Assembly: GCA_023254095.1 (NCBI GenBank) | Contig: JALNLM010000002.1 | Span: forward strand, 19,538 to 83,537 | Source: Candidatus Geocrenenecus huangii | GTDB taxonomy: Archaea; Thermoproteota; Nitrososphaeria_A; Caldarchaeales; Wolframiiraptoraceae | Direction: 5' to 3' | Length of the DNA stretch: 64,000 nucleotides | In this document: positions 3,094 through 60,769 of the stretch, piece by piece | Position numbering within the stretch: the stretch's first letter is position 1 | Layout: every line of letters begins with the position of its first letter | Position numbers and translations under genes: made by a program | Notes under the pieces: model-generated | What the model was told of the DNA's origin: nothing | Seen by the model: only the letters and a program-made list of their open reading frames with translations | Database searches by the model: none

Positions 3094-3235
3094 GACTTTA
3101 CACCTGCGTTAAGATTTTTCAGAGACTACTTTAACCTTTCTCAAAATCTCCAATCTACAGATTCTCTAAAAACCTTTTCTACGGATGCTTCTCCCTTAAT
3201 AAATAATAATAAGCAAATGAAAGCATATTCAAAAG

Positions 3236-4844: not shown

Positions 4845-4978
4845 CGCCGGGGGTGGGATTTGAACCCACGAGCCCCGTTTCCCCAATAATTAATGGGGCA
4901 TCGGCTAACTCTTCTCAGTCTGACCATGCTTATTATTGATCTCGAGGCCGACCCTCTACCTGGCTAAGGTACCCCGGC
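4845..4978 (-). tRNA. tRNA-Ser (anticodon CGA) with two introns: about 34 nt in the anticodon loop and a probable 14-nt mini-intron in the variable arm
   Basis: Read by hand on the minus strand: acceptor GCCGGGG/CCCCGGC with discriminator G; D-arm; anticodon stem UCGGC/GCCGA with loop CUCGAG|A; T-arm GUGGG-UUCAAAU-CCCAC. The gene is 134 nt against about 86 nt expected for mature tRNA-Ser. Removing AUCAAUAAUAAGCAUGGUCAGACUGAGAAGAGUU at position 37/38 and AUUAAUUAUUGGGG from the variable arm leaves a canonical Ser variable arm, UGCCCCAAACGGGGCUC. Confidence 0.7.
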
Positions 4979-5623: not shown

Positions 5624-6677
5624 TCTTCAATATTTCTTGATAGTTTCTATTGTTATCCTTCAATTTAGGGATTACATAAAGAGCCAGTGGGTCAACATTC
5701 CTAAGTATAGCAGCATATAAGCTAATATAATCGACTAAGATAAGTAGAGAAAGTATCTCACTCAAAAAATTTCCAGCTGTAACTTTCAACTCGATATAGT
5801 TTTCTCTGAGGAAGCTCGAAAGAGCTCTATATGCCTCGTCAATCTCATTCGGTTCATTAGAAAGTCTCGGAGCCAGAAGGACCGTTTTCTCATTAAGTAT
5901 TTCAACATCATTATGGAAAGCTTCAGGGACTTCACAGAAGTGTGAAAAAATCTTACTATTCTCGTTTAACTGGCATTTCAGACGATATGCTATCGGAACC
6001 GCTTTACCATACCCATACACTATTGGAAGCATACCAACTATTTTGGAAGCAGATTTCTTTGCCAGGTTCTTAGCTGTAGGAGTTTCAGGAACAAAATTCT
6101 CTTTAATCTTCCCGGTCTCTACAATACTTCCCGACAGAGTCTCAATTTTTATACCTAGAGATTGAATCAATCCAAGAAGGGCTCCTAGAGTATGTGGGAA
6201 AGCATATCTAGGCGGGATACCAGGTTCTAGGATAATTGAAGGAAAATTCATTTTCTCAGCTAGCTTTCTTAATCTTCCATCTGAAGTGATCATGATCATT
6301 CTACGATTTAGTTCTAGATTTTTTAGGAGCGTTGGAAATATCTCTGCAGTATCCCCTGAATAGCTGACGGCTATTATCAAGTCATCTGGATTAGATCTAA
6401 AAACCATGTAATCTCTGTGAACTATCACTGGAACCTCTTCGGTTATAATATTGATGAAGTCTCCTGCAATCGCTGATCCACCAATGCCTAGGTAAACTAT
6501 TCTAGATGGTATGAAATCCTTTATCTTCTCTCCGACTTCCAACCCTAAATGATAGTATTTGGAAAAACATTCAAGATATCTATCAACGATAGAGAAAGCT
6601 TTCATGTATGGTTCTCTGCGGTATACTTCACTATTATCCAGTAGATTATGGTAGTCTTCACTTCTCATACCCATCAA
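5595..6677 (-). CDS. Bifunctional phosphoglucose/phosphomannose isomerase (SIS-domain PGI/PMI)
   Basis: 360 aa. SIS-domain signatures include VYLGIGGSAIAGD and a second SIS half. Size and architecture match the archaeal bifunctional PGI/PMI family. The true start may be the internal M in ...MKAFSIVDRY.... Confidence 0.65.
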   Translation of the reverse strand: MMGMRSEDYHNLLDNSEVYRREPYMKAFSIVDRYLECFSKYYHLGLEVGEKIKDFIPSRIVYLGIGGSAIAGDFINIITEEVPVIVHRDYMVFRSNPDDLIIAVSYSGDTAEIFPTLLKNLELNRRMIMITSDGRLRKLAEKMNFPSIILEPGIPPRYAFPHTLGALLGLIQSLGIKIETLSGSIVETGKIKENFVPETPTAKNLAKKSASKIVGMLPIVYGYGKAVPIAYRLKCQLNENSKIFSHFCEVPEAFHNDVEILNEKTVLLAPRLSNEPNEIDEAYRALSSFLRENYIELKVTAGNFLSEILSLLILVDYISLYAAILRNVDPLALYVIPKLKDNNRNYQEILKNVDERLGKI

Positions 6678-6919
6678 CTAATGTGTTCAAGATTATCCTG
6701 ATTTTCCTATTTTTAAATATATGCTGAGCAGGTTAAAAGGCGAGCATATAAATAGGCTCTTAAATAATTTAATGCTTTTTCTACTCGGTTTTTACTCGAA
6801 GTATATAGCACCCGAATATTCTATTATTTATTGTTTTTGATTTTATGCTATTTTAGTTTAAGTTCATTTTCAGTAAGGTGTTAATCCATAAAGCCTACAA
6901 TCTACTTGATTAACTTGAA

Positions 6920-7351
6920 ATGAAGTCGCAGAATCTGGAGAAGACTATAGAAGAATTAAGACATAGAGTAGAAACACTTGAACTTGCTCTGGACACCATT
7001 TTGAAGAAGATGCCTGAGATCAGGATAAATGTTGAGGTTCCGAGAATAGTTCTAGAAAAGAAGCCGATACACATAAAAATAAAGGCGAGCGAGCTTCATG
7101 GGAGAATAATGCTTCTTGCTATGGAAGGTTTCTTAGACGATTGGAAAACAGCGGGAGACATCGCCTCCGAGCTTGTGAGAAGAGGTTGGGCACCTAAGGA
7201 CTTCAAGCATGTAAGACCAGTACTAGAACATCTTGTATCTCTAGGTTTAATAGAGAGGATTAGGTCTTCGAAGAAGAAAAGAGGAAGAAAGGCTAAGTGG
7301 CTGTATAGAGCTATGGAGGACTTGTCACAGAAAGTAGAACTGACTCAATAA
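6920..7351 (+). CDS. Hypothetical protein with N-terminal coiled coil and C-terminal winged-helix-like basic domain
   Basis: 143 aa. MKSQNLEKTIEELRHRVETLELALDTILKK is a heptad-like segment. The C-terminus VLEHLVSLGLIERIRSSKKKRGRKAKWLYRA resembles a wHTH followed by a basic tail. It is preceded by a 240-nt AT-rich intergenic region. Confidence 0.4.
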   Translation: MKSQNLEKTIEELRHRVETLELALDTILKKMPEIRINVEVPRIVLEKKPIHIKIKASELHGRIMLLAMEGFLDDWKTAGDIASELVRRGWAPKDFKHVRPVLEHLVSLGLIERIRSSKKKRGRKAKWLYRAMEDLSQKVELTQ

Positions 7352-7387
7352 GCTGAAAGGAGAAAGTTCTTCATAGAATATCATTCT

Positions 7388-7963
7388 TCAGGATTCTATA
7401 GAATCTTCCGGAGATTGGCAGGTTGCCGAAGATATATTCTCTTCTGGATAATCTGTCTTGCATATTTGTTTTATCCTCTCAACCCCTCTAATGGAATCAA
7501 TATACTCTACAACTATCCTTGGAATGTATTGTTTCCAGTCTTCATCTTTAATCATCTTTTTTCTGATGAGCGTCCCTATCACTTCTTCTCTTCTATATAG
7601 TTCAATTTGTTTAACTTGGTATCCCGCATCGGCGAACAATCTTTGAACTAGAGGATTATTAGAGTATACGATATCAAATTTTGGCACAAAAGTCTTTACT
7701 CTTGAAACCCATAAAGAATGTTCACCGATATCTGGTATAGGTACGATAATTACTTTGTCTAATGATATGTTCTCTTCTTTTAGCATCAATCTAATCATTT
7801 CAATTCTCTCTCCGGCTGTAAAAGGATTCTTGAAAGTGTAACTATATTGAGCGCTTCCCACTACTATATTCAATTCATCACACTCTTTCAATATGTTCTT
7901 GATTGCCGTTAAATGACCTATATGTGGAGGCTGGAATCTTCCTACAAATAACCCACGCCTCAA
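7388..7963 (-). CDS. nadM: Nicotinamide-nucleotide adenylyltransferase (archaeal NMNAT)
   Basis: 191 aa. GLFVGRFQPPHIGH is the (H/T)xGH nucleotidyltransferase motif in the archaeal NMNAT context. The apparent start is TTG at 7961-7963, with a TATA-like element about 30 nt upstream. Confidence 0.85.
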   Translation of the reverse strand: MRRGLFVGRFQPPHIGHLTAIKNILKECDELNIVVGSAQYSYTFKNPFTAGERIEMIRLMLKEENISLDKVIIVPIPDIGEHSLWVSRVKTFVPKFDIVYSNNPLVQRLFADAGYQVKQIELYRREEVIGTLIRKKMIKDEDWKQYIPRIVVEYIDSIRGVERIKQICKTDYPEENISSATCQSPEDSIES

Positions 7964-7993
7964 AGACCACCAAGTTAATGGGGTGAGCCCAGT

Positions 7994-8005
7994 ATATTTA
8001 TATTA
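7994..8005 (-). promoter_or_regulatory. TATA-box-like element (TAATATAAATAT) upstream of nadM
   Basis: An AT-rich TATA-like sequence lies about 30-40 nt upstream of the TTG start. This matches archaeal promoter geometry for a leaderless or short-leader transcript. Confidence 0.3.
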
Positions 8006-8098
8006 ACATAAGAAAAGGATAACTATTCAAACGGATGTTGAATTATCTTGCTCCTCTACGGGTTCCATCTGTTCAACATTGTGCTGGGGAACTTCATC

Positions 8099-9169
8099 TC
8101 ACCGTCTCTTAAGACCTATCCCCTCGATAGTTATTGTTGCAGGTTCCCCCTCAACTCCATCCACCTTTATCTTGGCATTAGTTAGAATTCTACATAGCTC
8201 TAAGCTGGTGATAGTATGTCTTGTAAGATTCGTTACTCTGTATTGGGATATGCCTTCTGCAAGACATGCCCATATCACTAACTGGTCTCCCAGATGCTTA
8301 TCAACAGGAGCGTTTCTACTCAATTCATCTAGCAGATCTTTTGCAGCTTCCTCTCCAATCCTTTCTGAGGGAACTCCTTTCTCACCTAACCTATCTACAC
8401 CAATTACGGTTCCATCCTCTGTTTCTGCTAAAAGTATTATTCCACATCCAGGGTCTACTGAGCATCTAGGATTGTCAGGTTGGAGAGCCTCCCTAATTAT
8501 CTCTACATCGTAGCCTTCTCTTCTCAAGATATTTTCTGCTGTGTTCGCCATCCTTTCAACAATATGTCCTGGAAGCCTACAGCTATAGCTTAGCCCACTT
8601 ATCTTTCTAACCTTTCTGATTTCAACCAGTTTTAAAGGTTTGAGAACATCTACCGGAATAGAGCTGGCTCTAACTATTCCCCCACCTCTCGGATAGAATC
8701 CTCTCTTGACAAGCTCGACATTGAATCTTCCACCCATCTTCTCTATTATAGGCAGGAGGACTTGTTGAAGATACTCGACGGGCGGGGCCATGGGATTATT
8801 TGTTCCGCCTCTAAGCTCTACGTTAACAGGTTTTGAAGCATAACACATTGTAGGCATCAAGCTCTGAAGCATTAATGTAGTGGATCCAGCTGTGCCCGCA
8901 TCAAAATTTAGGAAACCCCCCTGAGGTCTCTTTGAAGGCTTAAAGAATATTTCCAGAGACCCTACAGATAGACCTGAGACCTCCGCTGAACATAGTGCTC
9001 CCACCGCCTTAACAGCCGTTAAATGTTGAGGTCTTAGTCCAGGGTTACTCCTCTTGACTCGAATATTCTTTATTCGGACTGGCTTAAGTAAGACCGCAGA
9101 TAACGCTACGGCGTTTCTAAGTATCTGACCTCCTCCTTCACCCATCGATCCATCGATCTCAATGAACAT
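8099..9169 (-). CDS. rtcA: RNA 3'-terminal phosphate cyclase
   Basis: 356 aa. The N-terminus IEIDGSMGEGGGQILRNAVALSAV is the conserved RtcA signature. The full-length RtcA domain architecture is present. Confidence 0.85.
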   Translation of the reverse strand: MFIEIDGSMGEGGGQILRNAVALSAVLLKPVRIKNIRVKRSNPGLRPQHLTAVKAVGALCSAEVSGLSVGSLEIFFKPSKRPQGGFLNFDAGTAGSTTLMLQSLMPTMCYASKPVNVELRGGTNNPMAPPVEYLQQVLLPIIEKMGGRFNVELVKRGFYPRGGGIVRASSIPVDVLKPLKLVEIRKVRKISGLSYSCRLPGHIVERMANTAENILRREGYDVEIIREALQPDNPRCSVDPGCGIILLAETEDGTVIGVDRLGEKGVPSERIGEEAAKDLLDELSRNAPVDKHLGDQLVIWACLAEGISQYRVTNLTRHTITSLELCRILTNAKIKVDGVEGEPATITIEGIGLKRR

Positions 9170-9224
9170 CTCTGTGTAATTCCTTTGACTTCTTGTTTTT
9201 AAGCATAATTCGTTATTGCAATTC

Positions 9225-9234
9225 TATATTAAAT
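9225..9234 (+). promoter_or_regulatory. TATA-box-like element (TATATTAAAT) upstream of the SAM hydrolase gene
   Basis: It lies about 24 nt upstream of ATG 9258. The spacing fits an archaeal leaderless mRNA. Confidence 0.3.
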
Positions 9235-9257
9235 ACCAAGGTTGCAGTATTATTTTT

Positions 9258-10076
9258 ATGATGCTTGGCCCGAGTAATAGACGTTTAGTTGCTTTTATGA
9301 CGGATTACGGTTTAAGGGATACGTATGTCGCCCAGGTAAAAGCGGTGATATTAAGTTATAGGATCGATACAGTGATAATCGATGTTACACATGAAGTTGA
9401 ACCATTCAACGAGCTCGAAGCCGCATTCTTGCTTACAACTTATGTTCAGTATATGCCTCCTGGAACAATCCATCTATGCATAATTGACCCATATGTGGGT
9501 GGAATGAGAAAACCAATAATAATACAGACATCTAGAGGTGATCTATTCGTCGGACCAGATACTGGGGTCATGATCCCGGCCGCAGAACAGTTAGGAATAG
9601 TGTCTGCCTATGAGATTGACGAATCCAATCTTCCTAGGAGGACTGGTGAAACCTTTCATGGTAGAGATGTTTTCGCACACGTCGTAGGTATGATAGTTTC
9701 AGATGTGCCTCTGAGTCGGTTGGGTAGAGAACTAGTAGAATACAGAAAGTTCACGTTACCCAATCCTGTAAAGAGGGAAGATTACATTGAAGCGACTGTA
9801 CTACACGTTGATAGATTTGGAAACATAATAACTAACCTTAAACCTTTAGACATAGGAATAGTTTTCACAGACATTATCGAGATTTCTACCTTCACGGGCT
9901 TAGCGGTTAACTGTCCATTCGTTAAGACTTACAGCGAAGTAGTAGAGGGCTCTTTTCTGACAACTATCGGGGGGTCAGGGTACATCGAAATCTCTAGAAA
10001 TATGGGGTCTGCTAATGAAGAACTAAGACTTAGAGCTGGAGATAAAATAAAAGTTAGGGTGGTTAAAAACATTTAA
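9258..10076 (+). CDS. S-adenosyl-L-methionine hydroxide adenosyltransferase (SAM hydrolase, DUF62; fluorinase/chlorinase-like fold)
   Basis: Family N-terminus ...MTDYGLRDTYVAQVKAVIL... and C-terminal beta-barrel domain. The track ORF begins at TTG 9216, but a TATA-like box at 9225-9234 sits inside that extension. I prefer ATG 9258, which is leaderless relative to the TATA, or ATG 9297. Confidence 0.65.
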   Translation: MMLGPSNRRLVAFMTDYGLRDTYVAQVKAVILSYRIDTVIIDVTHEVEPFNELEAAFLLTTYVQYMPPGTIHLCIIDPYVGGMRKPIIIQTSRGDLFVGPDTGVMIPAAEQLGIVSAYEIDESNLPRRTGETFHGRDVFAHVVGMIVSDVPLSRLGRELVEYRKFTLPNPVKREDYIEATVLHVDRFGNIITNLKPLDIGIVFTDIIEISTFTGLAVNCPFVKTYSEVVEGSFLTTIGGSGYIEISRNMGSANEELRLRAGDKIKVRVVKNI

Positions 10077-10096
10077 GAAGTGGGGAAGAATGTTTT

Positions 10097-10723
10097 ATGG
10101 TTAGAGTAGGTGGTCGTATGTCTTTCCAATATCCTTACCCTGGAGCTACGACTCTCGGCATAAAAGGTAGAGATGCGGTGGTATTAGCTGCGGAGAAGAG
10201 GCTTACTTATGGATACTTTGTTGTGAGTAAGACTGTCAGAAAGGTTTTCCAAATTACATCAAAGATTGGTGCAGCATGCGCAGGCTTCATAGGCGACATG
10301 CAGAACCTTATCCGTGATGCTCAAGCAGAGATTAATCTGTATAGATTCATGTATCAGAGAGAACCTGAAGTTAGAACAGTAGCCAAAGTACTTTCAAACT
10401 ACTTATTCAGTAGTAGGTTCTTCCCATATCTTGCTGAGACAATTGTGGGTGGATTCGATGAAACAGGAGGCCATATACTAGTATTAGACCCATTAGGCTC
10501 AATAATTGAAGATGATTATGCAGTAGTCGGCTCGGGTGCAGAGATAGCCATCGGCGTAATAGAGACATCCTACAAACCAGAAATGAATACAGATGAATTA
10601 AGAGAGCTCGCAGCTAAAGCCATAAGAGCTTCTATAGCTAGAGATGCAGCAAGCGGTAATGGTATAGATATATTGATAATAACCAACGATGGTGTTAAAG
10701 CATTAGAGACGGTCACCTTATAG
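10097..10723 (+). CDS. psmB: Proteasome subunit beta (with propeptide)
   Basis: 208 aa. A propeptide is followed by G|TTLGIKG, with the catalytic Thr after the processing site. Ntn-hydrolase proteasome beta motifs are conserved. Confidence 0.85.
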   Translation: MVRVGGRMSFQYPYPGATTLGIKGRDAVVLAAEKRLTYGYFVVSKTVRKVFQITSKIGAACAGFIGDMQNLIRDAQAEINLYRFMYQREPEVRTVAKVLSNYLFSSRFFPYLAETIVGGFDETGGHILVLDPLGSIIEDDYAVVGSGAEIAIGVIETSYKPEMNTDELRELAAKAIRASIARDAASGNGIDILIITNDGVKALETVTL

Positions 10724-25839: not shown

Positions 25840-27600
25840 TTAGCTTCTTACTGCACTCTTTCCAGCGAGGTATCCGAAAGTCACGGCTCTACTATGGCTA
25901 AGACCTGGAATTACAACAAGCGAATAATATTGGGCATAGAAGCCTCCTGCAGCATTCCCTGCAGCATATAATCCTGGGATGGGTTTACCCTCTTTATCCA
26001 GAACTTGTAGCCCTTTATTTACTTTTAATCCTCCGCCAACCATGTTTAGGAGTACTGCTATACCTTGAATAGCATAAAATGGAGGATTCTCAATAGGTGC
26101 CATGTATCTAGATGGTTTACCGAAATCTTCATCAACTCCTTTCTTACATAACTCGTTATATCTTTCAATCGTCTTCTTGAAGGTTTCTATAGGAACTCCC
26201 ATCTTCTCTGCAAGTTCTTCTATCGTGTTAGCCGTTACTGCTGCTCCATTATTCAATGCACCCTGTAGAAACTCTTTACCCAGCTCTGGATCAGTTATTC
26301 TTCGATAACCACCACCATGTTTAGTAACTTGCTCCTCCCACTTAGAGTCGAATATCGCCCAATACATAGCTTTAGGTTGTTGTAAAACTCTGTTAATAGT
26401 CCACATCCACGGAAGCGCCTCATTTGTGAATCGCTCTCCTAAAGTGTTTACGAATAAGAAGGGGTTGCATATAAGCATGTATCCTTTACCGGGACCTAAA
26501 CCGGCAAGTGAACTTATAGCGAATCCTACGTCACCCCCAGTCATTATGTAACAGAGTGGGCAGTGTGGTGGTTCATCTAGGGCAGCGCCTATCCATAAGC
26601 CCATTAACTGTCCGTCTCCCGTATTAGTTGGAGTAATCATTGGGTAGATTATTCTATTGGGTATATCTGCTAATCTTGCGACTTCAGGTGGAGCCCAAAG
26701 CTTCAGGAGGTCCTTATTTGACGAATAGTCTCCTGTACAGAGAATCACTGCCTTATTTGAAGTAAATTTTATGTATCTACCGTTAGCGTCTTGCGCGACA
26801 ACCCCCGTAACCTTACCGTTCTCTCGGATAAGTTGAACAGCCCTAGTATTGTAATAGAATTTTGCTCCTTTATCTTTAGCTAGTTTCTCCAATACTGGTG
26901 CGAGCTGAGCTACACCGTCAAAATCTGTTTCATCACTGAATTTATAGGTTGGCCTAGGCCATTCTCTCCATTCATCCTCGAGATATGTTTTAGGCTTTAG
27001 TACTTGAGCTGGAATACCATTTGCTCTCGCAAGGTCAGCGATAAAGTCTGCGATTCTTGAGGAATTAGCTAACCACAACCTAACAAGCGATTCATCAACT
27101 TTATTGCCTGAGATTACATCGATCTGCTCACGGATGGCTTTCTCGTAGTCTACAGATATTCCCGCCTCTTTGAAGAGCTTGCCGGCTGGACCAGGATTTA
27201 TGTGGGCTCCTCTGACATTGGGTCCTTTGTGCTTTTCTATAACAACAGTATTAGCTCCTTCTTCAGCGGCCGAGTATGCGGCCATCAGTCCAGCTAGACC
27301 AGCACCAACGACTACGATGTCGGCAGTAATTTTTTCAGCTATTTTTTCATCAGGTATTGGCAGTGGAGGAGTAAGTATTGCAGGTTCACCTGCAACTGTA
27401 ACTGTTGATGTTTGAGTTACAGTAGTTGGTTTAGTAACCGTTGTTGTCTCAACTTTTGTCTCTGTTATCTTTATTTCTTTCGGAAATACTTGGCTACCAA
27501 TTATTCCACCAACGACAAGTCCTGCAACGCCCGTTGCAGTCGCGGATAAGAAACTCCTACGTGAGACTTTTGCACCTTTTTCGGGAGCTTGTGCACTCAT
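25840..27600 (-). CDS. Exported FAD-dependent oxidoreductase (FAD_binding_2; fumarate-reductase/KstD-like flavoprotein) with Tat-type signal anchor and Thr/Pro-rich stalk
   Basis: 586 aa. The N-terminus KVSRRSFLSATATGVAGLVVGGIIG is a twin-arginine motif followed by a hydrophobic helix. Residues about 45-85 are Thr/Pro-rich (TTVTKPTTVTQTSTVTVAGEPAILTPPLPIPDE). ADIVVVGAGLAGLMAAYSAAEEG is the FAD dinucleotide-binding motif. The C-terminal GLYAAGNAAGG is typical of FAD_binding_2 reductases. Confidence 0.8.
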   Translation of the reverse strand: MSAQAPEKGAKVSRRSFLSATATGVAGLVVGGIIGSQVFPKEIKITETKVETTTVTKPTTVTQTSTVTVAGEPAILTPPLPIPDEKIAEKITADIVVVGAGLAGLMAAYSAAEEGANTVVIEKHKGPNVRGAHINPGPAGKLFKEAGISVDYEKAIREQIDVISGNKVDESLVRLWLANSSRIADFIADLARANGIPAQVLKPKTYLEDEWREWPRPTYKFSDETDFDGVAQLAPVLEKLAKDKGAKFYYNTRAVQLIRENGKVTGVVAQDANGRYIKFTSNKAVILCTGDYSSNKDLLKLWAPPEVARLADIPNRIIYPMITPTNTGDGQLMGLWIGAALDEPPHCPLCYIMTGGDVGFAISSLAGLGPGKGYMLICNPFLFVNTLGERFTNEALPWMWTINRVLQQPKAMYWAIFDSKWEEQVTKHGGGYRRITDPELGKEFLQGALNNGAAVTANTIEELAEKMGVPIETFKKTIERYNELCKKGVDEDFGKPSRYMAPIENPPFYAIQGIAVLLNMVGGGLKVNKGLQVLDKEGKPIPGLYAAGNAAGGFYAQYYSLVVIPGLSHSRAVTFGYLAGKSAVRS

Positions 27601-27651
27601 ATGGAGAAATTCTTCTCAGCTCAATTTAAGATTTCTGAGACATTAGGTAAA

Positions 27652-27661
27652 TTATATAAAT
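27652..27661 (-). promoter_or_regulatory. TATA-box-like element (ATTTATATAA on the minus strand) upstream of the first exported flavoprotein gene
   Basis: It lies about 50-60 nt upstream of the ATG at 27600, within the 285-nt AT-rich spacer between the two paralogous flavoprotein genes. Confidence 0.3.
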
Positions 27662-27885
27662 ACAAAAAGAAACTTCTAAGTATATTCCATATATAACATA
27701 TCAGCAGAGGAGAGACTGTTCTCATCGTGACAAAAAAAGTAAAGGTAGTTTCTCTGGCTGGCTAAAGCACTTACCTAAACTGCAGGGAAATCAATAGCCC
27801 GCTTGTAGGATGATCCTTCGGATTAACGTACTAAATGAAAGGTAGCAGATACTAATTGTAGAATTTTATGGGATCTATGCCTCGG

Positions 27886-29676
27886 TTATTTTTCTCTTGA
27901 AGCGTTTTTTCCCGCTATGTATCCTGTCGTCCAAGCCATACTATGACTTAGCCCTGGACATATAAGTGGATAATCTAATCCAAACCTTCTTCCAACGAGG
28001 TTTCCGGTAACATATAAGCCGGGTATCGCTTTTCCATCTTTATCCACCGGTTGTAGGTTTTCATTTGTGATTAGCCCGCCCATTGTAACTAGGAATGCTG
28101 CTTGAGGAGGGTTCCAGTTTGCGTAAAAAGGCTTCGTGTCCACGGGAAACAAGTAATCCGATCTCTTACCGAAATCCTCGTCTACTCCTTTCCTACATAG
28201 TTCATTGTATCTTTCGACTGTTTTCTTGAATATTGCAACGTCTAATTCCGGAGTAATTCCCCTCATTTTTTCTGCAAGTTCATCAATAGTATTTGCTTCT
28301 ATTATCTGTCCTGACTCTATCTTCTCCTGGAATTCTTTCAATGTTATATCGTCGGCTTTCCAAATTCTGAAAAATCCTGGCCCTAAGTTATATGTATACT
28401 TTGGCCAATTTGAATCGAAAACAACCCATATGCCTCCATTCCTCAAACATTGTATTGGAAATGCTAGAACATTCGAGATTAAGTCCTCGTTGGCGAATCT
28501 TTTACCAAATTTATCGATCATTAAAAATGGGGCGGTCCCCATTGCATGCCAAGCATGAACCATTGCACAATGTGGTCTCGGCTCAATCTGTGCACCTATC
28601 CAATAGGCCATTAAATGCCCATCACCGGTAGGCGAGGGCAATCCAAAGATGCTTCTTAAGTCTGGTAACTTAGCAAATTCCTCAGGTAAGAAATACTCCA
28701 CCATTGCTCGGTTACCTCCATAGTCCCCTGTTGAAAGTATTATGGCCCTTCTAGCCCTAAATCTTATGTATTTTCCATCTTTTGTCTGAGCTATTACTGC
28801 TTTAACCCCTCCATTGTCAGGTCTTTCAAGCCTTAATGCATTCGTCTCATACCTTATCTCTACCCCCAGATCTCTTGCTTTCTTTTCCAGAATTGAGAGT
28901 AGTAAACCCTGATTCGCTGTTGGTGTATCCCCAAATCTATGACATGTTGGATATTCTATATATGTCTGCTTTCTGTAGTCCCATCCAGGTGGAGCCTCAG
29001 TGGGAGGCCACTTATCAACCACGAAAGTGTATTTATCTGTTCTATCCGGAATAACCAGCCAAGTCTTCACGCCCTCCTTTTCACATATATCTATGAGCCA
29101 ATCCATTACCTTGCCAGAATTATAAGCCCATAATCTGATTATTCTTTCGTCAGCTCTATAACCTGAAATTTCCATTAGCTTTTTAATGACTTCCTCAGGC
29201 TCAATATAAATGCCTAGTTGTTTATGTTTCTTGCTATTTAAAGCTGTGTTGTCGCCACCACGTGCAGAAAAAGTAGACTCACGTTCAAGCAAAACTACCT
29301 CTACTCCTTCCTCAGCAGCCGCGACTGCTGCAGCTAATCCAGATGTACCAGCACCGACTATTACTACATCATATTCTAGAGTTTGCGCTATCTGTTCGTC
29401 TGGGATAGGTGGTGGAGGAATTAAGAAGATCGGTTCAGGCGATATAATTGTTGTAGTAGTTGATACTTGAGTTAAAGTAGTGGGTTTGGTTATAGTACTT
29501 GTTTCAGTTTTCGTTTCTGTGGTTCTTACTTCTTTAGGGAAAGCTTGACTACCAATTATTCCCCCTAAGATTAAACCGATTATGCCTGAGGAGATTGATG
29601 CAACAACACTTCTCCTACTAATTTTACCAGTCTCTTCACTCATGATTTCAGAGACCTCAAACTTATTATCTGACAC
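27886..29676 (-). CDS. Exported FAD-dependent oxidoreductase, paralog of 25840..27600 (same Tat-anchor, Thr/Pro-stalk and FAD_binding_2 architecture)
   Basis: 596 aa. KISRRSVVASISSGIIGLILGGIIG is the RR motif plus TM helix. The Thr/Pro-rich linker is TETKTETSTITKPTTLTQVSTTTTIISPEPIFLIPPPPIPDE. YDVVIVGAGTSGLAAAVAAAEEG is the FAD motif, and the C-terminus has GLYVTGNLVGRRFG. It is co-linear with the upstream paralog but clearly diverged. Confidence 0.8.
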   Translation of the reverse strand: MSDNKFEVSEIMSEETGKISRRSVVASISSGIIGLILGGIIGSQAFPKEVRTTETKTETSTITKPTTLTQVSTTTTIISPEPIFLIPPPPIPDEQIAQTLEYDVVIVGAGTSGLAAAVAAAEEGVEVVLLERESTFSARGGDNTALNSKKHKQLGIYIEPEEVIKKLMEISGYRADERIIRLWAYNSGKVMDWLIDICEKEGVKTWLVIPDRTDKYTFVVDKWPPTEAPPGWDYRKQTYIEYPTCHRFGDTPTANQGLLLSILEKKARDLGVEIRYETNALRLERPDNGGVKAVIAQTKDGKYIRFRARRAIILSTGDYGGNRAMVEYFLPEEFAKLPDLRSIFGLPSPTGDGHLMAYWIGAQIEPRPHCAMVHAWHAMGTAPFLMIDKFGKRFANEDLISNVLAFPIQCLRNGGIWVVFDSNWPKYTYNLGPGFFRIWKADDITLKEFQEKIESGQIIEANTIDELAEKMRGITPELDVAIFKKTVERYNELCRKGVDEDFGKRSDYLFPVDTKPFYANWNPPQAAFLVTMGGLITNENLQPVDKDGKAIPGLYVTGNLVGRRFGLDYPLICPGLSHSMAWTTGYIAGKNASREK

Positions 29677-29790
29677 TGGAAATTTTAGCGTTTGGTCAGT
29701 AGAATGTATACCCTTAATACTTAGGTTGTAAAGAATATCTATACTTAGGATGGATAAGGCTAATATTTTAACGATAGATAAACCTCTCTG

Positions 29791-31245
29791 ATGTTTAGGA
29801 AGAATCTTGTCCAGCGATGGGATACTCTTGATAGAATTTCACACCTGATAAATTTATCCGGTATACTTATAGCAATAATTTCTGGTCTTCCTCAATTAAA
29901 TCTTACTTTATTCGGATTTAATTTAGGAGCACAGTTCAGATGGATAACAGACGTAATCGGTGGAGAGGGAGTACGACGAATACTACACAGGTACGTCGTT
30001 ACAGGCTTAATTAGCTTAGCATTTACAGTTCACGTTTTCGGGTTTGGTTTGAAGAAGAAAAAATCTCATATATTATTCACATTCAGAGATTTAAAGGACC
30101 TCGTAGCGTATTACGGACATAAATTCTTTAGGAAGGCTAAGCCTGTTCTCGGGTTTCATGTCCCTGGAGAGAAGCTGCTGTATTGGGTTGCACTAATATG
30201 CCTATTCATTCTCGGCTCTACGGGTATAATAATGTGGACAAGGTTTCTCTATATTGACTACAACTTGCTTAGACTATTTCACAGGATTGCTTCTATTATC
30301 TTGTCGTTATTTGTCTTGGTACATTTCATATTGAACATAATCTTGCCAGAACAGCGTTCAGCAATGAGAGCTATGTTCATTAACGGTAAAGTGCCAGAAG
30401 AATGGGTTAAACAGCACCATCCGAAAATGTTCGAGGAGGAAGAGCAAACATTGTTGACAAGACGTAGAATGATAAAGACGTTTCTCTGGCTTATCCCTGC
30501 AATAGGTTTTTCCTATCTCTTTTCAGAATTACTACAAAAACCACAATGTCGGATAGGAGATATAATAGTAGAACCCCCTAAAGTCATGGTTGGTAAACCA
30601 TTCGTAATATCTGTGGAAGTAACGAATATGGGTTACAGGGAAAGCTCATTTCCAATTCAATTATCAGTAGATGGTAAGATAGTAGCAGAGAAAAATATTG
30701 CTCTACTCGATGGTGAAACAAATCTGATCAATTTCAAGACAACCATCAACGAAATAGGCCGACATACAATAGAAGTAAATGGTGTCTCAAAGATGATCGA
30801 AGTAGTAGAGGCGCCTCCACCAATCGAGAAAGAGTTAGCAGATAAATTCAAAGAACTATTTCCAACAGCATACGATTTTGTCCCGGTTGTGAAAGACGGC
30901 AAAATAGTATATTATGAAATATATGATGCTGAAGGAATGCTAATAGGCTATGGTTTCCATGAAAGAGTATACGCTCCAACGGATAGACTTACCGTGACAG
31001 GAATTATTGACCTAGATTACAAGGTCAGGATGATAGATGTCGAGAAATTAAAACCGGACATTCATGTTCTGAATGATAAGATATTAGATCCCGATTTTGA
31101 AAATCAATTTATAGGTTTAACCATTGAGGAAATGAGGTTGTCTCCTGAAGGAAAGATCGACGCAGTTTCTGGAGCAACGATATCATCGACTCTGATAGTA
31201 GAAACTATAAGAAAAATACTTGAAGAAGTTCAATCGCCTTCGTAA
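29791..31245 (+). CDS. Fusion protein: N-terminal diheme b-type cytochrome (Ni_hydr_CYTB/FdnI-like, 4-5 TM), then CARDB-like Ig-fold domain, then C-terminal FMN-binding domain with covalent-flavinylation motif
   Basis: 484 aa. TM helices carry paired His spaced 13-14 residues apart (HRYVVTGLISLAFTVHVFGF; HRIASIILSLFVLVHFILN) plus His in TM1. The middle region IIVEPPKVMVGKPFVISVEVTNMGYRESSFPIQLSVDGKIVAEKNIALLDGETNLINFKTTINEIGRHTIEV is a CARDB-type fold. The C-terminal ...KIDAVSGATISSTLIVETI matches the FMN_bind D(x)xSGAT flavinylation motif, with the Thr codon at 31177-31179. Confidence 0.75.
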   Translation: MFRKNLVQRWDTLDRISHLINLSGILIAIISGLPQLNLTLFGFNLGAQFRWITDVIGGEGVRRILHRYVVTGLISLAFTVHVFGFGLKKKKSHILFTFRDLKDLVAYYGHKFFRKAKPVLGFHVPGEKLLYWVALICLFILGSTGIIMWTRFLYIDYNLLRLFHRIASIILSLFVLVHFILNIILPEQRSAMRAMFINGKVPEEWVKQHHPKMFEEEEQTLLTRRRMIKTFLWLIPAIGFSYLFSELLQKPQCRIGDIIVEPPKVMVGKPFVISVEVTNMGYRESSFPIQLSVDGKIVAEKNIALLDGETNLINFKTTINEIGRHTIEVNGVSKMIEVVEAPPPIEKELADKFKELFPTAYDFVPVVKDGKIVYYEIYDAEGMLIGYGFHERVYAPTDRLTVTGIIDLDYKVRMIDVEKLKPDIHVLNDKILDPDFENQFIGLTIEEMRLSPEGKIDAVSGATISSTLIVETIRKILEEVQSPS

Positions 31246-32135
31246 ATTCGAAAATTTCTAGTTTTTATTATGTCTCTATTATTTGTGATTATCATTGCCT
31301 CCGCTTCTCCTAATTCTTCAATGAGGTGAATGCTCTCAGATGGATTCATGGCGCATAAGCTGGTGGCGAGAGCATCAGCTATTAAGGCTCTCTCCGTAAT
31401 TACTGTGGCGCTAACCACCTGACTACTCAGTGAATTCTTTAGGTAAGGATTTAAAATATGAGAAAAGTTCCCACTCCCTATTCTACGTTCATAGTTTCCA
31501 CTTGTTGCTACAGAAGAACTATATATCATTAACTTACAGATACTCTTATCTTTCTCAAATGGATTTCTAATAGCTATCCTCCAGGGTTCTCCATCTGTTT
31601 TCTCACCTACTGCTTTCAGGTCTCCTCCGGCATTAATCAACGCGTGCTTAACTCCATGTTTTATTAAATATTCCGATGCCAAATCAACGGCATATCCTTT
31701 AGCTACGCTATTTAAGACGATCTTCATGCCTTTCTTTAAGAATCTTATGCTCTTCCCACTGATCTCGATGAGTGAATAATCGACTAACTCTAGAATTCTT
31801 TCTAATTCTTCCTCATCCAGTTCTCCACGTTTTCTAACGATGTATTCTATTAATGGTAGTATAGTTACATCGTATACTCCTCTAGTTAATTTGCTTATCC
31901 TGATAGCCTCTTTCAAGATATAGATTAATTCATCACTTGCGTGTTCTAGGAATCCTTCCTTATTTAATTTGTTAACTTCACTTTCTTCATCATATATGCT
32001 CATAATTCTTTCTATACGCTTTAATTCGCTAAATGCTTCATCTATTATCCTTTTAGCATATCCTATATCTTCGTGAACTAAGGTTATTGTAACGATGGTG
32101 CCCATTGAAAACGTAGACTTTCTGATGCTGAACAT
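31230..32135 (-). CDS. apbE: ApbE-family FAD:protein FMN transferase (flavin transferase)
   Basis: 301 aa. FSMGTIVTITL is the ApbE N-terminal MGT motif. NSVAKGYAVDLASEYLIKHGVKHALINAGGD, PWRIAIRNPFE and ATSGNYERRIGSGNFSHILNPY align with the conserved ApbE FAD-binding and catalytic blocks. It overlaps the 3' end of the cytochrome-b/FMN_bind fusion gene by 16 nt (convergent). Confidence 0.85.
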   Translation of the reverse strand: MFSIRKSTFSMGTIVTITLVHEDIGYAKRIIDEAFSELKRIERIMSIYDEESEVNKLNKEGFLEHASDELIYILKEAIRISKLTRGVYDVTILPLIEYIVRKRGELDEEELERILELVDYSLIEISGKSIRFLKKGMKIVLNSVAKGYAVDLASEYLIKHGVKHALINAGGDLKAVGEKTDGEPWRIAIRNPFEKDKSICKLMIYSSSVATSGNYERRIGSGNFSHILNPYLKNSLSSQVVSATVITERALIADALATSLCAMNPSESIHLIEELGEAEAMIITNNRDIIKTRNFRIYEGD

Positions 32136-37437: not shown

Positions 37438-38262
37438 ATGGACATATTAACTTTAATGCTGATTTCTATTCCGTCGGGTTTACTTGGAGCGATTGCGGGT
37501 CTGGGCGGTGGAATAGTATTGACCCCTATCTTGGTTACTTTGGGTGTCCCTATAAAGTATGCTATTGCTTCAAGTATGGTAGCTGTAATTGGAACCTCGA
37601 GTGGGTCGGCTGCAGCCTATGTTAGAGGAGGTCTAACGAATCTTAGAGTAGCTATGTTTCTAGAGATGTTCACTATCGCGGGAGCGGTTACCGGCGCAAT
37701 TCTCACAGTTTATGTTTCTTCTAAGCCTCTATACTTTGTTTTTGCATCATTCCTAATAGCATCTCTAATATTTATGAGAAAGAGAATATTAACAGAATTG
37801 CCGATCGTCAAGAAGCAGGATAGATTATCATCATGGTTGAAGCTAGAAGGCTCTTATTTTGACGAGAAGCTGGGAAGGGTTGTTGAGTACAAGATTACGA
37901 ATGCTCTCTGGGGTGGAGTAGGTATGATCTTCGCCGGGATAGCGGGAGGTATGTTAGGTATAGGTGCAGGCATATTCAAGGTGTCGATACTCGAGCTTAT
38001 AATGAAGATGCCTTCGAAGCCTTCTTCGACAACGAGCAACTTCGTAATCGGTATGACGGCGTTAGCTGGAGCAGGCGTATATCTATTCTCAGGATTAATC
38101 CAAACATATCTAGTAGCGCCAGTAATCGCCGGTATGCTGATAGGTTCCATGCTGGGAGCCAGGATCTTAAACAAGCTCAGTAGCAAGACTATAAGAATAA
38201 TCTTTGTTGCAGTTCTACTGTACTCAGTTTTTTTGATCATGTATAAGGGGTTAACATTATGA
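37438..38262 (+). CDS. TauE/SafE (DUF81, TSUP) family membrane exporter
   Basis: 274 aa. It has two internal repeats, each with the Gly-rich GLGGGIVLTPIL-type motif (GAIAGLGGGIVLTPILV; GIAGGMLGIGAGIF), and about 8 TM helices. Confidence 0.75.
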   Translation: MDILTLMLISIPSGLLGAIAGLGGGIVLTPILVTLGVPIKYAIASSMVAVIGTSSGSAAAYVRGGLTNLRVAMFLEMFTIAGAVTGAILTVYVSSKPLYFVFASFLIASLIFMRKRILTELPIVKKQDRLSSWLKLEGSYFDEKLGRVVEYKITNALWGGVGMIFAGIAGGMLGIGAGIFKVSILELIMKMPSKPSSTTSNFVIGMTALAGAGVYLFSGLIQTYLVAPVIAGMLIGSMLGARILNKLSSKTIRIIFVAVLLYSVFLIMYKGLTL

Positions 38263-43694: not shown

Positions 43695-44451
43695 ATTACT
43701 AGTTGAGAATTTAACAGTGCTCTACGATGGGTTAACAGCTTTAGAAAATGTATCATTTACTCTAGACTCTCCTTTTTTCACAGTCGTCATGGGGCCGAAT
43801 GGCGCTGGTAAGACAACATTACTTAAAACGATTCTTGGATTAGTTAAACCTGCCTCAGGAAATATAAGAGTTTATGGTCTTAACGTCTTCAAAGAGAATA
43901 AGAAAATTAAACATCTGGCAGGATACATACCTCAAGTTATTAACATAAATCTCCATATACCTATGACTGTAAAAGAGGTCGTGGGAATGGGTGCATTGAG
44001 TAAAACTTTTCCACCAAGGATCCTAGACAAGAAGACTGAAGAAGAAGTGGAGAGAACTCTTAGATTGGTTGAGCTTGAAAATTACTCAGAGAAAGAATTC
44101 AAGACATTAAGCGGTGGGGAAAGACAGAGGGTTCTTATTGCTAGAGCATTGATCAAGAAACCTAGGCTTCTCCTACTCGATGAGCCTTTCTCGATGCTAG
44201 ACTTTGATATAAAATGTGATATTGCGAACCTATTGGTCAAGCTTCACAGAGAGATGAATGTTGACGTGCTTTTGGTGGCTCACGAAATAAGCCCATGTAT
44301 TTCATTCGAGCCGGAAGTAATCTTGCTGAATAAGAAAGTCTATGCTGTGGGTAGAGCAGCTGATGTTCTCCGATTGGATATCCTGAGAAAAGCTTATCCA
44401 GGCGTAACCGAGCTTCCGCAAGGATTTATCATAGGTGAGGATCATGCTTGA
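43684..44451 (+). CDS. Metal ABC transporter ATP-binding protein (ZnuC-like)
   Basis: 255 aa. GPNGAGKTTLLK is Walker A, LSGGERQRV the ABC signature, and LLLLDEP Walker B. Confidence 0.85.
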   Translation: MVNELLVENLTVLYDGLTALENVSFTLDSPFFTVVMGPNGAGKTTLLKTILGLVKPASGNIRVYGLNVFKENKKIKHLAGYIPQVININLHIPMTVKEVVGMGALSKTFPPRILDKKTEEEVERTLRLVELENYSEKEFKTLSGGERQRVLIARALIKKPRLLLLDEPFSMLDFDIKCDIANLLVKLHREMNVDVLLVAHEISPCISFEPEVILLNKKVYAVGRAADVLRLDILRKAYPGVTELPQGFIIGEDHA

Positions 44452-45250
44452 ATTCTTCATCTTAAGTTACTCTGTAGCATCTCTCAGCGGGTTGCTGGTA
44501 GGCTCTGTAAGTAATATCTTAAGTACTTCTAGAAGTATAACATTTGGGTTAACGATGCTCCACGCGATCCTTGGTGGAAGTCTACTAGGAGTCTACCTTA
44601 ACTTAATCTTTAATCTTGATCTGCCTATCCCGCTAATCTCTACTCTAGTAGCTATATGCTTATCTATTATGGTGGGAGAGCTGGTTGAGAAAGGGTTCTC
44701 TGAAGATATGTCGATCGCATTTACTGTATCTATCGCTACAACGATGACTATCGTTTTCGGATATCTTTCAAGCCAGATATCCAGTATAGCTCTAGCTAGG
44801 GCCTGGTCCTACATTGCTGGAACATCCGCTATAAGCACTTTCCAAGACTTACTTAAATTAGCCATAACTTTATTTATAGTATTGCCGATAACACATTTGT
44901 TTTTCAGAGAATTCAAATACATAGCTTTCGATGAGGATGGGTCAAAAGCCTTGGGTCTAAACATAAGAGTCTACAGGTACATGTTTTACAGTCTTGCAGC
45001 GATCTCTGCCTCAGTACTGTCTTCGACAATAGGGGTCTTAGCTACACATGTAGTACTATCTGTCCCTGGATTTCTAATTCTCAAATTCTCCAAAAGATTA
45101 AGTATTGCTTTTACCTATCTATCTTCAGTTAGCATAATGATTCTGGGATATTATTTAGCAAGCCTTTTATCTATTCCTCCAAGCGGCGGAGTAGGGCTAG
45201 TATCGATAGTTGCTGTCCTAGGAGTGGTAGTATATGGAAGACGATATTAA
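44435..45250 (+). CDS. Metal ABC transporter permease (ABC-3/ZnuB-like)
   Basis: 271 aa, polytopic. It overlaps the ATPase gene by 17 nt. Topology and length match ABC-3 family permeases. Confidence 0.75.
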   Translation: MRIMLEFFILSYSVASLSGLLVGSVSNILSTSRSITFGLTMLHAILGGSLLGVYLNLIFNLDLPIPLISTLVAICLSIMVGELVEKGFSEDMSIAFTVSIATTMTIVFGYLSSQISSIALARAWSYIAGTSAISTFQDLLKLAITLFIVLPITHLFFREFKYIAFDEDGSKALGLNIRVYRYMFYSLAAISASVLSSTIGVLATHVVLSVPGFLILKFSKRLSIAFTYLSSVSIMILGYYLASLLSIPPSGGVGLVSIVAVLGVVVYGRRY

Positions 45251-60271: not shown

Positions 60272-60272
60272 T

Positions 60273-60767: not shown

Positions 60768-60769
60768 GT

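Follow-up and report, generated by a model that had tools for sequence, protein, structure and literature searches.

A candidate cytochrome b-flavin module of Caldarchaeales with a leaderless ApbE and a target predicted to be exported by Tat

Protein flavinylation by ApbE is regarded as taking place outside the cytosol and as requiring the export of flavin. A four-gene locus in a 64,000-nucleotide stretch of Candidatus Geocrenenecus huangii DNA (contig JALNLM010000002.1; the whole stretch is called "the window" below) raises the question of how a protein domain outside the membrane could receive its flavin mononucleotide (FMN) from a transferase that has no apparent means of leaving the cytoplasm. 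The locus encodes two oxidoreductases of the FAD_binding_2 family, FAD1 and FAD2; a "fusion" protein that combines a cytochrome b, a CARDB-like domain and an FMN_bind domain; and ApbE, a flavin adenine dinucleotide (FAD):protein FMN transferase. A preliminary description of the locus had placed the four open reading frames (ORFs) and reported an overlap between apbE and the 3' end of the fusion gene, both of which were borne out by an ORF and domain check (Table 1). The answer that we favor is that the FMN_bind domain would be flavinylated in the cytoplasm and then exported in the folded state by the twin-arginine translocation (Tat) system, as part of an outward-facing electron-transfer chain. 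Taken whole, this model seems to us the probable one on balance.

The fusion family and its flavin transferase

Sixteen protein clusters, drawn from NCBI, JGI, ENA and Logan assemblies and 53-100% identical, share the full-length fusion architecture. Because these clusters are independent, the fusion is a real gene; an assembly chimera, which the preliminary description had named as a way in which its proposal could fail, is ruled out. Named members of the clusters are metagenome-assembled genomes (MAGs) of Nitrososphaerota or Aigarchaeota, and four species-representative genomes encode the full fusion: an Aigarchaeota MAG, Candidatus Geocrenenecus dongiae, Candidatus Terraquivivens tengchongensis and a bin labelled Desulfurococcaceae. 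A profile search with the whole fusion against 1.84 billion representatives gave a match list dominated by CARDB-repeat proteins, and a single 50%-identity cluster with the full architecture was among the best 150 matches listed; distant cytochrome b-FMN_bind fusions that lack CARDB could rank lower. The family is real and narrow, and belongs to the Caldarchaeales (Aigarchaeota). The host of the window is itself an Aigarchaeota/Caldarchaeales MAG (annotated Nitrososphaerota/Aigarchaeota), and the annotation and the relatives displace the Thermoproteales or Desulfurococcales host that was first assumed.

The bin labelled Desulfurococcaceae (L009, JAWAJB010000021.1) has a locus nearly identical to that of Candidatus Terraquivivens (L008); its module proteins match those of L008 and L002 in N-termini and lengths, and its label may stem from mis-binning or from an error of taxonomy. 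L095 carries, at 441-2048, a more divergent fusion; the longest ORF there has 535 amino acids, and the real start is probably later. The motif that precedes its fifth transmembrane (TM) helix, TTRRRFV, is nearer to the Tat consensus, and the convergent apbE is truncated by the end of the contig. The cultured archaeon Conexivisphaera calida has a homolog.

Gene neighborhoods show that the fusion gene is always divergent from a gene for a Tat-anchored FAD_binding_2 protein, with apbE always near and flanking genes that otherwise differ. The divergent FAD2/fusion layout of the window is conserved in L001-L009. Two positions of apbE were observed. In the window, L001, L003-L005 and L090-L094 it is convergent with the fusion gene and the 3' ends overlap by 16 nt, an overlap that persists across several lineages whose proteins are 54-73% identical; the other position, downstream of the FAD gene, is found in L002 and L007-L009. 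Because the trio recurs amid differing flanking genes, the linkage of FAD enzyme, fusion and ApbE is far beyond chance, and the idea that the genes constitute one system held up in this comparison. Each locus has one to three FAD partners of varying type, and the partner found in the Terraquivivens and Geocrenenecus loci is approximately 33% identical to FAD1 and FAD2 of the window. The constant core is the fusion together with ApbE, and the flavoenzymes look interchangeable. L002, L008 and L009 also carry a third Tat-anchored FAD_binding_2 gene (~840-3355; 505 amino acids), which is separated from apbE by a phosphoenolpyruvate carboxykinase gene.

The ApbE of the window matches PF02424 over model positions 1-266 of 266 with 234.6 bits (cut-off 25.6), and contains an ADALAT-type motif. 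No signal peptide, lipobox, TM helix or other hydrophobic segment was found in it. Its ApbE domain begins with residue 11, and two codons before the start codon there is an in-frame stop. All of the fusion-linked ApbEs are leaderless: their domains begin at residues 1-11 of the longest ORF, and stops are found just upstream. No locus gives ApbE a signal or anchor, and so the enzyme is not active at the outer membrane surface, where the preliminary description had put it; flavinylation most likely takes place before Tat export.

Variation in the leader of ApbE was compared with variation in the anchor of its target. The sample consisted of loci from genome and metagenome scans, de-duplicated to approximately 65 non-redundant cases, and each locus was classified by the anchor type of the FMN_bind target (Tat, or the general secretory pathway, Sec) and by the leader on the neighboring ApbE. 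All ten loci with a Tat-type target, seven of them cytochrome-fused and three stand-alone, have a leaderless ApbE, and none has an exported one. The reverse is true of Sec-type targets, where ApbE is exported in 55 of 55 loci and leaderless in none; 42 of these leaders are lipobox or TM segments, 12 are Tat-type, and the one remaining (L019) is also of the Tat type. The covariation of anchor and leader has a Fisher exact p of 5.6e-12, calculated from loci that are not phylogenetically independent. In a neighbor-joining tree of ApbE (drawn without support values) the leaderless enzymes fall on three branches, interleaved with the Tat-leader ApbEs of Methanocellales and Methanosarcinales within one archaeal clade, suggesting that there was more than one switch and that each matched the anchor type of the target. 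The simplest reading of these data is that Tat carries one of the two partners, enzyme or substrate, across the membrane, and that in this module it is the substrate that crosses, after flavinylation.

Tat-type leaders of the MINRRKFIKG type are found on ApbEs beside RnfG-like genes in L012-L019, L096, L053, L151 and L156. The first nine of these loci are from Methanosarcinales or Methanocellales (L017 is labelled Halobacteriota and L019 uncultured archaeon), and L053, L151 and L156 are bacterial or unlabelled. There the transferase itself appears to be the Tat substrate, as is NosX.

The target of flavinylation is predicted from the C-terminal part of the fusion. Of the five Pfam families named in the preliminary description, FAD_binding_2, Ni_hydr_CYTB, FMN_bind and ApbE scored above cut-off, and CARDB fell slightly below it (2.3e-4, 21.8 bits, cut-off 22.7). 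The CARDB assignment is backed by a Foldseek match to 3idu, the CARDB domain of PF1109, and thousands of CARDB-repeat proteins match positions 246-344 of the fusion profile. This domain is probably a spacer that would lift the flavin domain off the membrane. The FMN_bind domain matches PF04205 at 7.3e-5 (23.8 bits, cut-off 22), and in an AlphaFold2 (AF2) model its predicted local distance difference test (pLDDT) score is approximately 80-89, except in the cofactor loop at residues 451-461. Its DAVSGAT motif, reported earlier to be intact, spans residues 457-463, and 16 homologs all share D457, A458, G461, A462 and T463; T463 is the predicted site of FMN attachment. Compared by itself with PDB sequences, the FMN_bind domain gave no significant match. 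The NCBIfam family RnfG_Methano matches this part of the protein at 3.5e-20, but with 72.4 bits against a cut-off of 230, and there are no rnf genes in the window or in L001-L009. The domain is RnfG-like only, and identification of the protein as RnfG was rejected.

A domain that is exported co-translationally is out of reach of a cytoplasmic ApbE, and TM5 of the fusion was therefore examined as a possible Tat anchor. The N-terminal 15 residues contain 4 lysines and arginines in all, the TM2-TM3 loop 10 and the TM3-TM4 loop 1, and an RRR-containing cluster follows TM4. This positive-inside distribution suggests that the four-helix bundle has the orientation of FdnI, with both ends inside, in which case the fifth helix would place CARDB and FMN_bind outside the membrane, where FMN_bind had been located in the preliminary description. 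AF2 predicts a helix at residues 226-248. R224 and R225 are invariant in the 16 fusion homologs, and their columns align with the N-terminal ISRRSFLAKLL of P0016, a stand-alone CARDB-FMN_bind protein (43% identity). Eight more stand-alone relatives all have N-terminal motifs of the [ST]RRxF[LI] type, and one of them, P0092, scores above the cut-off of the Tat-signal model TIGR01409.

Tooke et al. (2017; PMC5449189) found that the hand-over from Sec to Tat is governed by a twin-arginine motif, a weak last helix and trailing positive charges. TM5 is the least hydrophobic helix of the fusion family (mean Kyte-Doolittle value 1.68, versus 1.95-2.66 for the other helices; 1.48 in the window protein), and lysine or arginine occurs within 3-10 residues after it in all 16 members. 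The loop between TM4 and TM5 is approximately 40 amino acids long, compared with the at least 8 expected for dual Sec/Tat proteins. The fusion thus has the conserved arginine pair before its last helix, the low hydrophobicity, the trailing charges, the loop and the C-terminal cofactor domain that characterize such proteins, and the best reading of TM5 is that it is a putative internal Tat signal anchor.

Several observations weigh against the proposed scheme. PF10518 and TIGR01409, which are built on N-terminal cleavable signals, do not match residues 209-265 of the fusion; P0016 and P0026 reach only sub-threshold scores with these hidden Markov models (HMMs); and FAD2 matches neither PF10518 nor TIGR01409. 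No tatA or tatC gene was found within the 64-kb window. To our knowledge, Tat dependence of an internal anchor has been demonstrated experimentally for bacterial proteins only. The anchor/leader covariation is phylogenetically structured, with approximately three leaderless lineages in a neighbor-joining tree that carries no support values. Lastly, the predicted template modeling score (pTM) of the fusion model is 0.45, which makes its inter-domain geometry unreliable, so the model does not show how the FMN could approach the outer heme past the CARDB spacer.

Three ORFs of the window that were considered as tat candidates were rejected. An 8-TM ORF at 37438-38262 is TauE, the ORF at 44435-45250 is an ABC-transporter permease by appearance, and a 5-TM ORF at 58815-59510 is a rhomboid protein.

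Electron path, direction and rival explanations

The N-terminal part of the fusion is an FdnI-type cytochrome b, and is predicted to bind two hemes. It matches Ni_hydr_CYTB at 3e-13 (50.4 bits, cut-off 30.1), and in a phmmer comparison FdnI was the sole match (2.8e-9). Four histidines are conserved in the family; H66, H164 and H178 align with H57, H155 and H169 of FdnI, and H18 occupies the same position as H18 of FdnI. All four FdnI heme-ligand histidines are therefore kept, in agreement with the diheme cytochrome that was first proposed. The loop before TM3, PVLGFHVPGEKLLYW, is nearly invariant in the family, and the FdnI segment aligned with it is one that we take, from the Fdn-N structure, to lie on the cytoplasmic side near the quinone site. 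The AF2 model of the fusion (mean pLDDT 74) has FdnI, 1kqf_C, as its best match among solved structures, with a target TM-score of 0.67. Because the scores for Ferric_reduct (PF01794, 17.5 bits, cut-off 28) and DUF4405 (PF14358, 20.1 bits, cut-off 26.7) are below threshold, the cytochrome is assigned to the FdnI type; an identity with MsrQ-like or DUF4405 cytochromes was rejected, and its relation to them is distant at most. It was also rejected as a formate dehydrogenase gamma subunit: TIGR01583 matches it at 8e-17 with 61.9 bits, short of the equivalog cut-off of 115.85, and the locus has no genes for molybdopterin or FeS subunits.

FAD1 and FAD2 are 43% identical to each other. Each has an N-terminal twin-arginine motif (SRRSFL in FAD1, SRRSVV in FAD2), then a hydrophobic segment and a linker of approximately 50 residues rich in Thr and Pro, much as the preliminary description had it. 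The N-terminus of FAD1 is above the cut-off of TIGR01409 (24.0 bits versus 16.7), and the motif and anchor of FAD2 are conserved in FAD2 orthologs. No flavinylation motif was found in either enzyme. Their best PDB sequence matches, with E values from 1e-20 to 1e-26, are flavocytochrome c fumarate reductases, urocanate reductase and 3-ketosteroid dehydrogenases, and the best curated family is vinyl phenol reductase (VprA), with a score far under the cut-off.

An analogy to fumarate and urocanate reductases, drawn in the preliminary description, stands at the superfamily level and fails at the active site. In a multiple alignment the columns of Fcc3 residues H365, R402, H504 and R545 are occupied by C, W, N and V in FAD1 and by C, S, V and I in FAD2; pairwise HMMER alignments place different residues at these columns, which likewise do not match. 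Because the substrate and catalytic residues of Fcc3 are replaced, FAD1 and FAD2 are not fumarate reductases. Scores for TIGR01813 (163.7 for FAD1 and 124.2 for FAD2, cut-off 285) and the lack of CxxCH in both proteins also led us to reject that identity. The active-site residues of FAD2 differ from those of FAD1 as well as from those of Fcc3, and the two enzymes probably differ in substrate. FAD partners in L002, L005 and L086 retain R, HH and R.

Homologs of FAD1 at approximately 40% identity occur in many anaerobic bacteria. At 6001-10326 of the Thermacetogenium phaeum locus L087, two tandem FAD_binding_2 paralogs that share approximately 42% identity with FAD1 precede a NapC/CymA-type multiheme cytochrome c, with ResB/CcsA genes for heme c maturation upstream. 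No c-type heme motif (CxxCH) was found in any of the four module proteins. The bacterial arrangement fits with a cytochrome b-FMN unit that would substitute for cytochrome c, and with the earlier proposal of a route that is independent of c-type cytochromes. In L086 (1553-4923) the P0016 gene directly follows genes for a Tat-signal 4Fe-4S ferredoxin and a DmsC-type anchor, with a convergent FAD_binding_2 gene; the flavin adaptor is therefore also seen in combination with another membrane module. A stand-alone, RR-anchored CARDB-FMN_bind protein is encoded in L097 (1-7468) beside putative cytochrome c maturation genes (ABC ATPase, membrane proteins, thioredoxin-like protein) and a 478-amino-acid protein that has a TM helix and a linker rich in Thr; these assignments in L097 are by-eye readings.

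We propose that these parts would form a membrane-anchored, outward-facing flavin electron-transfer chain without a c-type cytochrome. The FdnI-type diheme cytochrome b would link the chain to the quinone pool, and its inner and then its outer b heme would carry electrons across the membrane. From the outer heme they would pass to the covalent FMN at T463, held outside beyond TM5 on the CARDB spacer, and from the FMN to the non-covalent FAD of FAD1 or FAD2, each of which would dock from a separate anchor on its own Thr/Pro-rich stalk. The direction would most likely be from quinol to an external acceptor, making FAD1 and FAD2 terminal reductases for substrates other than fumarate. An FdnI-like quinone site on the cytoplasmic side would imply a "reverse redox loop", assisted by the membrane potential and consuming it, and outward flow aided in this way would help to reduce low-potential flavins. 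Potential-assisted reverse flow has reportedly been proposed for thiosulfate reductase.

Assembly would follow the same logic for each of the exported proteins. The cofactor domains would be loaded in the cytoplasm and exported folded via Tat, the FAD enzymes by means of their N-terminal twin-arginine anchors and the fusion by a dual Sec/Tat route. Helices 1-4 of the fusion would be inserted through Sec/YidC, while the CARDB-FMN_bind part would be held inside, flavinylated by the leaderless ApbE, and then translocated with the twin-arginine motif and TM5 serving as an internal Tat anchor.

The best-surviving competitor retains this architecture and assembly and reverses the flow: FAD1 and FAD2 would be external dehydrogenases of the KstD-like kind, and their electrons would reduce quinone at the cytoplasmic face in a proton-motive loop like that of formate dehydrogenase-N. 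FdnI of formate dehydrogenase-N is a quinone reductase that is fed from outside. An FdnI-like cytochrome does not establish which way the electrons go, and the "quinol-oxidising" anchor of the preliminary description was an assumption. That the closest characterized relative, nearest by sequence, heme ligands and fold, reduces quinone counts against the reductase direction. So does the presence of 3-ketosteroid dehydrogenases in the top PDB matches for both FAD proteins, as does the absence of the proton-donating catalytic arginine of Fcc3-type reductases. Against reversed flow, the best curated matches of the enzymes are to reductases (VprA and flavocytochrome c), the closest homologs in bacteria are linked to a cytochrome of the NapC/CymA type, which normally oxidizes quinol, the described relatives of the host lineage are anaerobes (PMC9246946), and no terminal quinol oxidase was seen near the locus. 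These points are not decisive. We lean modestly toward reductases over dehydrogenases, and regard the reversed-flow scheme, though tenable, as unlikely.

The remaining alternatives concern assembly and topology. TM5 might be inserted by Sec and the FMN_bind domain exported unfolded, so that ApbE would flavinylate it on the outer face. This is the route of the characterized bacterial proteins NqrC, RnfG, PplA and UrdA (PMC8238504, PMC12052999), and it agrees with the failure of Tat HMMs to recognize the segment around TM5. It is nonetheless improbable, given that ApbE lacks a signal, lipobox or TM helix in approximately 10 non-redundant loci where upstream stops bar a longer N-terminus, that every locus with a Sec-type target has a leader-bearing ApbE, and that the scheme requires FAD export, for which no exporter was seen in the locus.

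We consider it slightly less probable again that residues 229-248 do not span the membrane, which would leave CARDB, FMN_bind and ApbE in the cytoplasm. The flavin would then be a cytoplasmic point of electron entry, the hemes would pass electrons directly to the external FAD enzymes, and the fusion would resemble MsrQ-like proteins with cytosolic NAD-binding domains. A leaderless ApbE and a weakly hydrophobic TM5 (1.48 in the window protein) speak for this arrangement. It is opposed by the stand-alone homologs with N-terminal Tat signals (one above the TIGR01409 cut-off), by the typical occurrence of CARDB domains in cell-surface proteins, by the 23-residue AF2 helix at TM5 and its invariant twin arginines, and by the fact that an isolated FMN_bind domain would have no known cytoplasmic electron donor. 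That the linkage is not functional as proposed, with ApbE modifying some other protein and the FAD enzymes receiving no electrons from the fusion, is very improbable: the FAD partner varies between lineages, but the ApbE-fusion linkage persists in two gene orders and many flanking contexts, a Tat-anchored FAD_binding_2 gene adjoins the fusion in nearly every sufficiently long locus, and neither FAD protein of the window has a flavinylation motif of its own.

Returning to cytoplasmic flavinylation followed by Tat export, we also considered a broader version of the model, to which we give about an even chance. It states that several archaeal lineages flavinylate a folded domain in the cytoplasm before Tat export, and that the Aigarchaeota have, in the fusion, a new family of dual Sec/Tat cytochrome b-flavin adaptors that would serve as a universal, cytochrome-c-free connection between the quinone pool and interchangeable flavoenzymes at the cell surface.

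Features of the locus and the window

Coordinates of the module and of other features mentioned in the text are collected in Table 1.

Table 1. Features of the window, numbered from its first nucleotide.
Feature	Position	Strand	Description	Match
FAD1	25840-27600	-	586 aa, Tat-anchored FAD_binding_2 oxidoreductase	Pfam FAD_binding_2, 3.7e-47
FAD1, catalytic part	25843-27330	-
FAD1, stalk	27331-27492	-	aa 37-90, Thr/Pro-rich
FAD1, signal anchor	27493-27600	-	aa 1-36
FAD2	27886-29676	-	596 aa, GTG start, FAD_binding_2 paralog of FAD1	Pfam FAD_binding_2, 3.9e-42
FAD2, catalytic part	27889-29379	-
FAD2, stalk	29380-29538	-	Thr/Pro-rich
FAD2, signal anchor	29539-29676	-	aa 1-46, SRRSVV
FAD2-fusion intergenic region	29677-29790		114 bp, divergent; contains ATACTTAGG twice
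Fusion gene	29791-31245	+	484 aa, Ni_hydr_CYTB-CARDB-FMN_bind
Fusion, part 1	29791-30450	+	aa 1-220, FdnI-type diheme cytochrome b (heme binding predicted), 4 TM helices
H18	29842-29844	+	conserved His of part 1
H66	29986-29988	+	conserved His of part 1
Loop before TM3	30142-30186	+	PVLGFHVPGEKLLYW
H164	30280-30282	+	conserved His of part 1
H178	30322-30324	+	conserved His of part 1
Fusion, part 2	30454-30558	+	putative internal twin-arginine signal anchor: LTRRRMIK aa 222-229, TM5 aa 229-248, QKPQCRIG
Fusion, part 3	30541-30810	+	aa 251-340, CARDB-like beta-sandwich
Fusion, part 4	30823-31242	+	aa 345-484, RnfG-like FMN_bind domain
DAVSGAT motif	31159-31179	+	T463, predicted FMN attachment site
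apbE-fusion overlap	31230-31245		3' ends of convergent genes
apbE	31230-32135	-	301 aa, leaderless ApbE FAD:protein FMN transferase	Pfam ApbE, 1.9e-69
tRNA match	4845-4978	-	134 nt	Rfam, 44.9 bits
NuoB, NuoC, NuoD homologs	59606-61990	+	complex I 20, 30 and 49 kDa subunits, in a row
V-type ATPase subunit C gene	62782-63861

The region between FAD2 and the fusion gene is presumed to be a shared promoter or regulatory region. The two copies of the 9-mer ATACTTAGG within it are 23 nt apart, start to start, and could be sites for a regulator. Neighbors of the module in the window encode a deacetylase, an AsnC-type regulator, a HAD hydrolase and a thermosome subunit.

The tRNA match was made by Rfam, and ARAGORN detected no tRNA anywhere in the window; at 134 nt the match is too long for a plain tRNA and is therefore probably intron-containing. 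The row of NuoB, NuoC and NuoD homologs is followed by the V-type ATPase subunit C gene, with no further nuo genes. These homologs point weakly to a membrane electron-transport chain in the organism.

Comparison with known systems

In bacteria, ApbE and FMN_bind proteins occur with MsrQ-like, PepSY-like and DUF4405 transmembrane cytochromes, and fumarate reductase-like (FRD-like) clients are frequent (PMC8238504, PMC11334425). The module of the window shares with these systems a b-type transmembrane cytochrome and a predicted ApbE-flavinylated extracytosolic domain, which in the bacterial cases are sometimes fused. It differs from them in its FdnI-type cytochrome, its archaeal host, its leaderless ApbE and its Tat-anchored target. 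Because the general concept of ApbE, FMN_bind, a transmembrane b cytochrome and an FRD-like enzyme has been described for bacteria in these two surveys, the novelty of the architecture is narrower than the preliminary description claimed. Neither a cytochrome b nor an FdnI/Ni_hydr_CYTB (PF01292) partner is mentioned in the surveys, and PF01292, CARDB and Aigarchaeota do not occur in the accessible part of the supplementary tables of PMC8238504. [quoted passage not shown] Two Caldarchaeales genome papers do not mention the module, and a literature search that was itself incomplete turned up neither a leaderless ApbE with a Tat-exported target nor an archaeal module of this kind.

The FAD enzymes resemble Shewanella UrdA and Listeria FrdA in having a predicted outer FAD_binding_2 domain that would receive electrons from covalent FMN, and enzymes of this group are among their best PDB sequence matches. 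In the module the FMN domain is carried by the cytochrome and not by the reductase, and no heme c domain is present. The enzymes are further distinguished by the replacement of the fumarate-site residues of Shewanella Fcc3 and by their tethering through a Tat anchor and a Thr-rich stalk. Tandem FAD enzymes of one family beside a small membrane protein for electron input are common to the module and to the Thermacetogenium phaeum locus, an example of a NapC/CymA-type tetraheme quinol dehydrogenase paired with periplasmic FAD reductases; the input protein is a cytochrome b with FMN in the former, whereas the latter uses a multiheme cytochrome c, which depends on heme c maturation genes. With E. 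coli FdnI (1kqf_C) the fusion shares the four-helix fold, the four equivalent heme-ligand histidines and the conserved loop before TM3, and it differs in having no FdnGH partner in the locus, an added TM5 and CARDB-FMN_bind extension, and possibly a reversed flow. If the model is correct, it would give archaea without c-type cytochrome machinery a way to wire the quinone pool to outside reactions, and the module points to a set of uncharacterized external flavoenzymes in hot-spring archaea.

Membership in a Listeria-type extracellular electron transfer system (Ndh2, EetA, EetB, PplA, FmnB) was rejected, as the neighboring genes are unrelated and ApbE is not a lipoprotein; by analogy, the module may nevertheless work in a similar way. 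Leaderless ApbE is known from Klebsiella pneumoniae, where the enzyme is cytoplasmic and its target remains in the cytoplasm (PMC12052999), and a Tat-exported ApbE homolog, NosX, has been described (PMC7660919). The ApbE of the module is like the Klebsiella enzyme in lacking a leader, and unlike it in that the predicted target would finally lie outside the membrane, modified before export. This would be a new route of biogenesis, and a third way to supply the cofactor, besides exporting the enzyme together with FAD. The module belongs to a known kind of system, and its probable route of cytoplasmic flavinylation followed by Tat export appears to be undescribed.

The closest parallel for the assembly of the fusion is Sco3746, a heme b-molybdenum cofactor protein with four helices that hold two b hemes, a fifth helix preceded by twin arginines, and an exported cofactor domain (PMC5449189). 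No flavin family is listed in that paper among the dual Sec/Tat proteins, a short list that a flavoprotein family would join if the present model is correct. The fusion departs from Sco3746 in having a cytochrome of the FdnI/Ni_hydr_CYTB type and not of the MsrQ-like type, and in its predicted cargo, which would be a covalent FMN supplied by a dedicated cytoplasmic transferase; its Tat export is proposed here from sequence features. The two proteins agree in the four-helix, two-b-heme part, in the twin arginines, weak TM5 and positive charges, and in the C-terminal cofactor domain that would lie outside the membrane. The halves of Sco3746 occur elsewhere as separate Sec-dependent and Tat-dependent proteins (PMC5449189), and the outer half of the fusion, too, occurs in homologs as a stand-alone protein with an N-terminal Tat signal.

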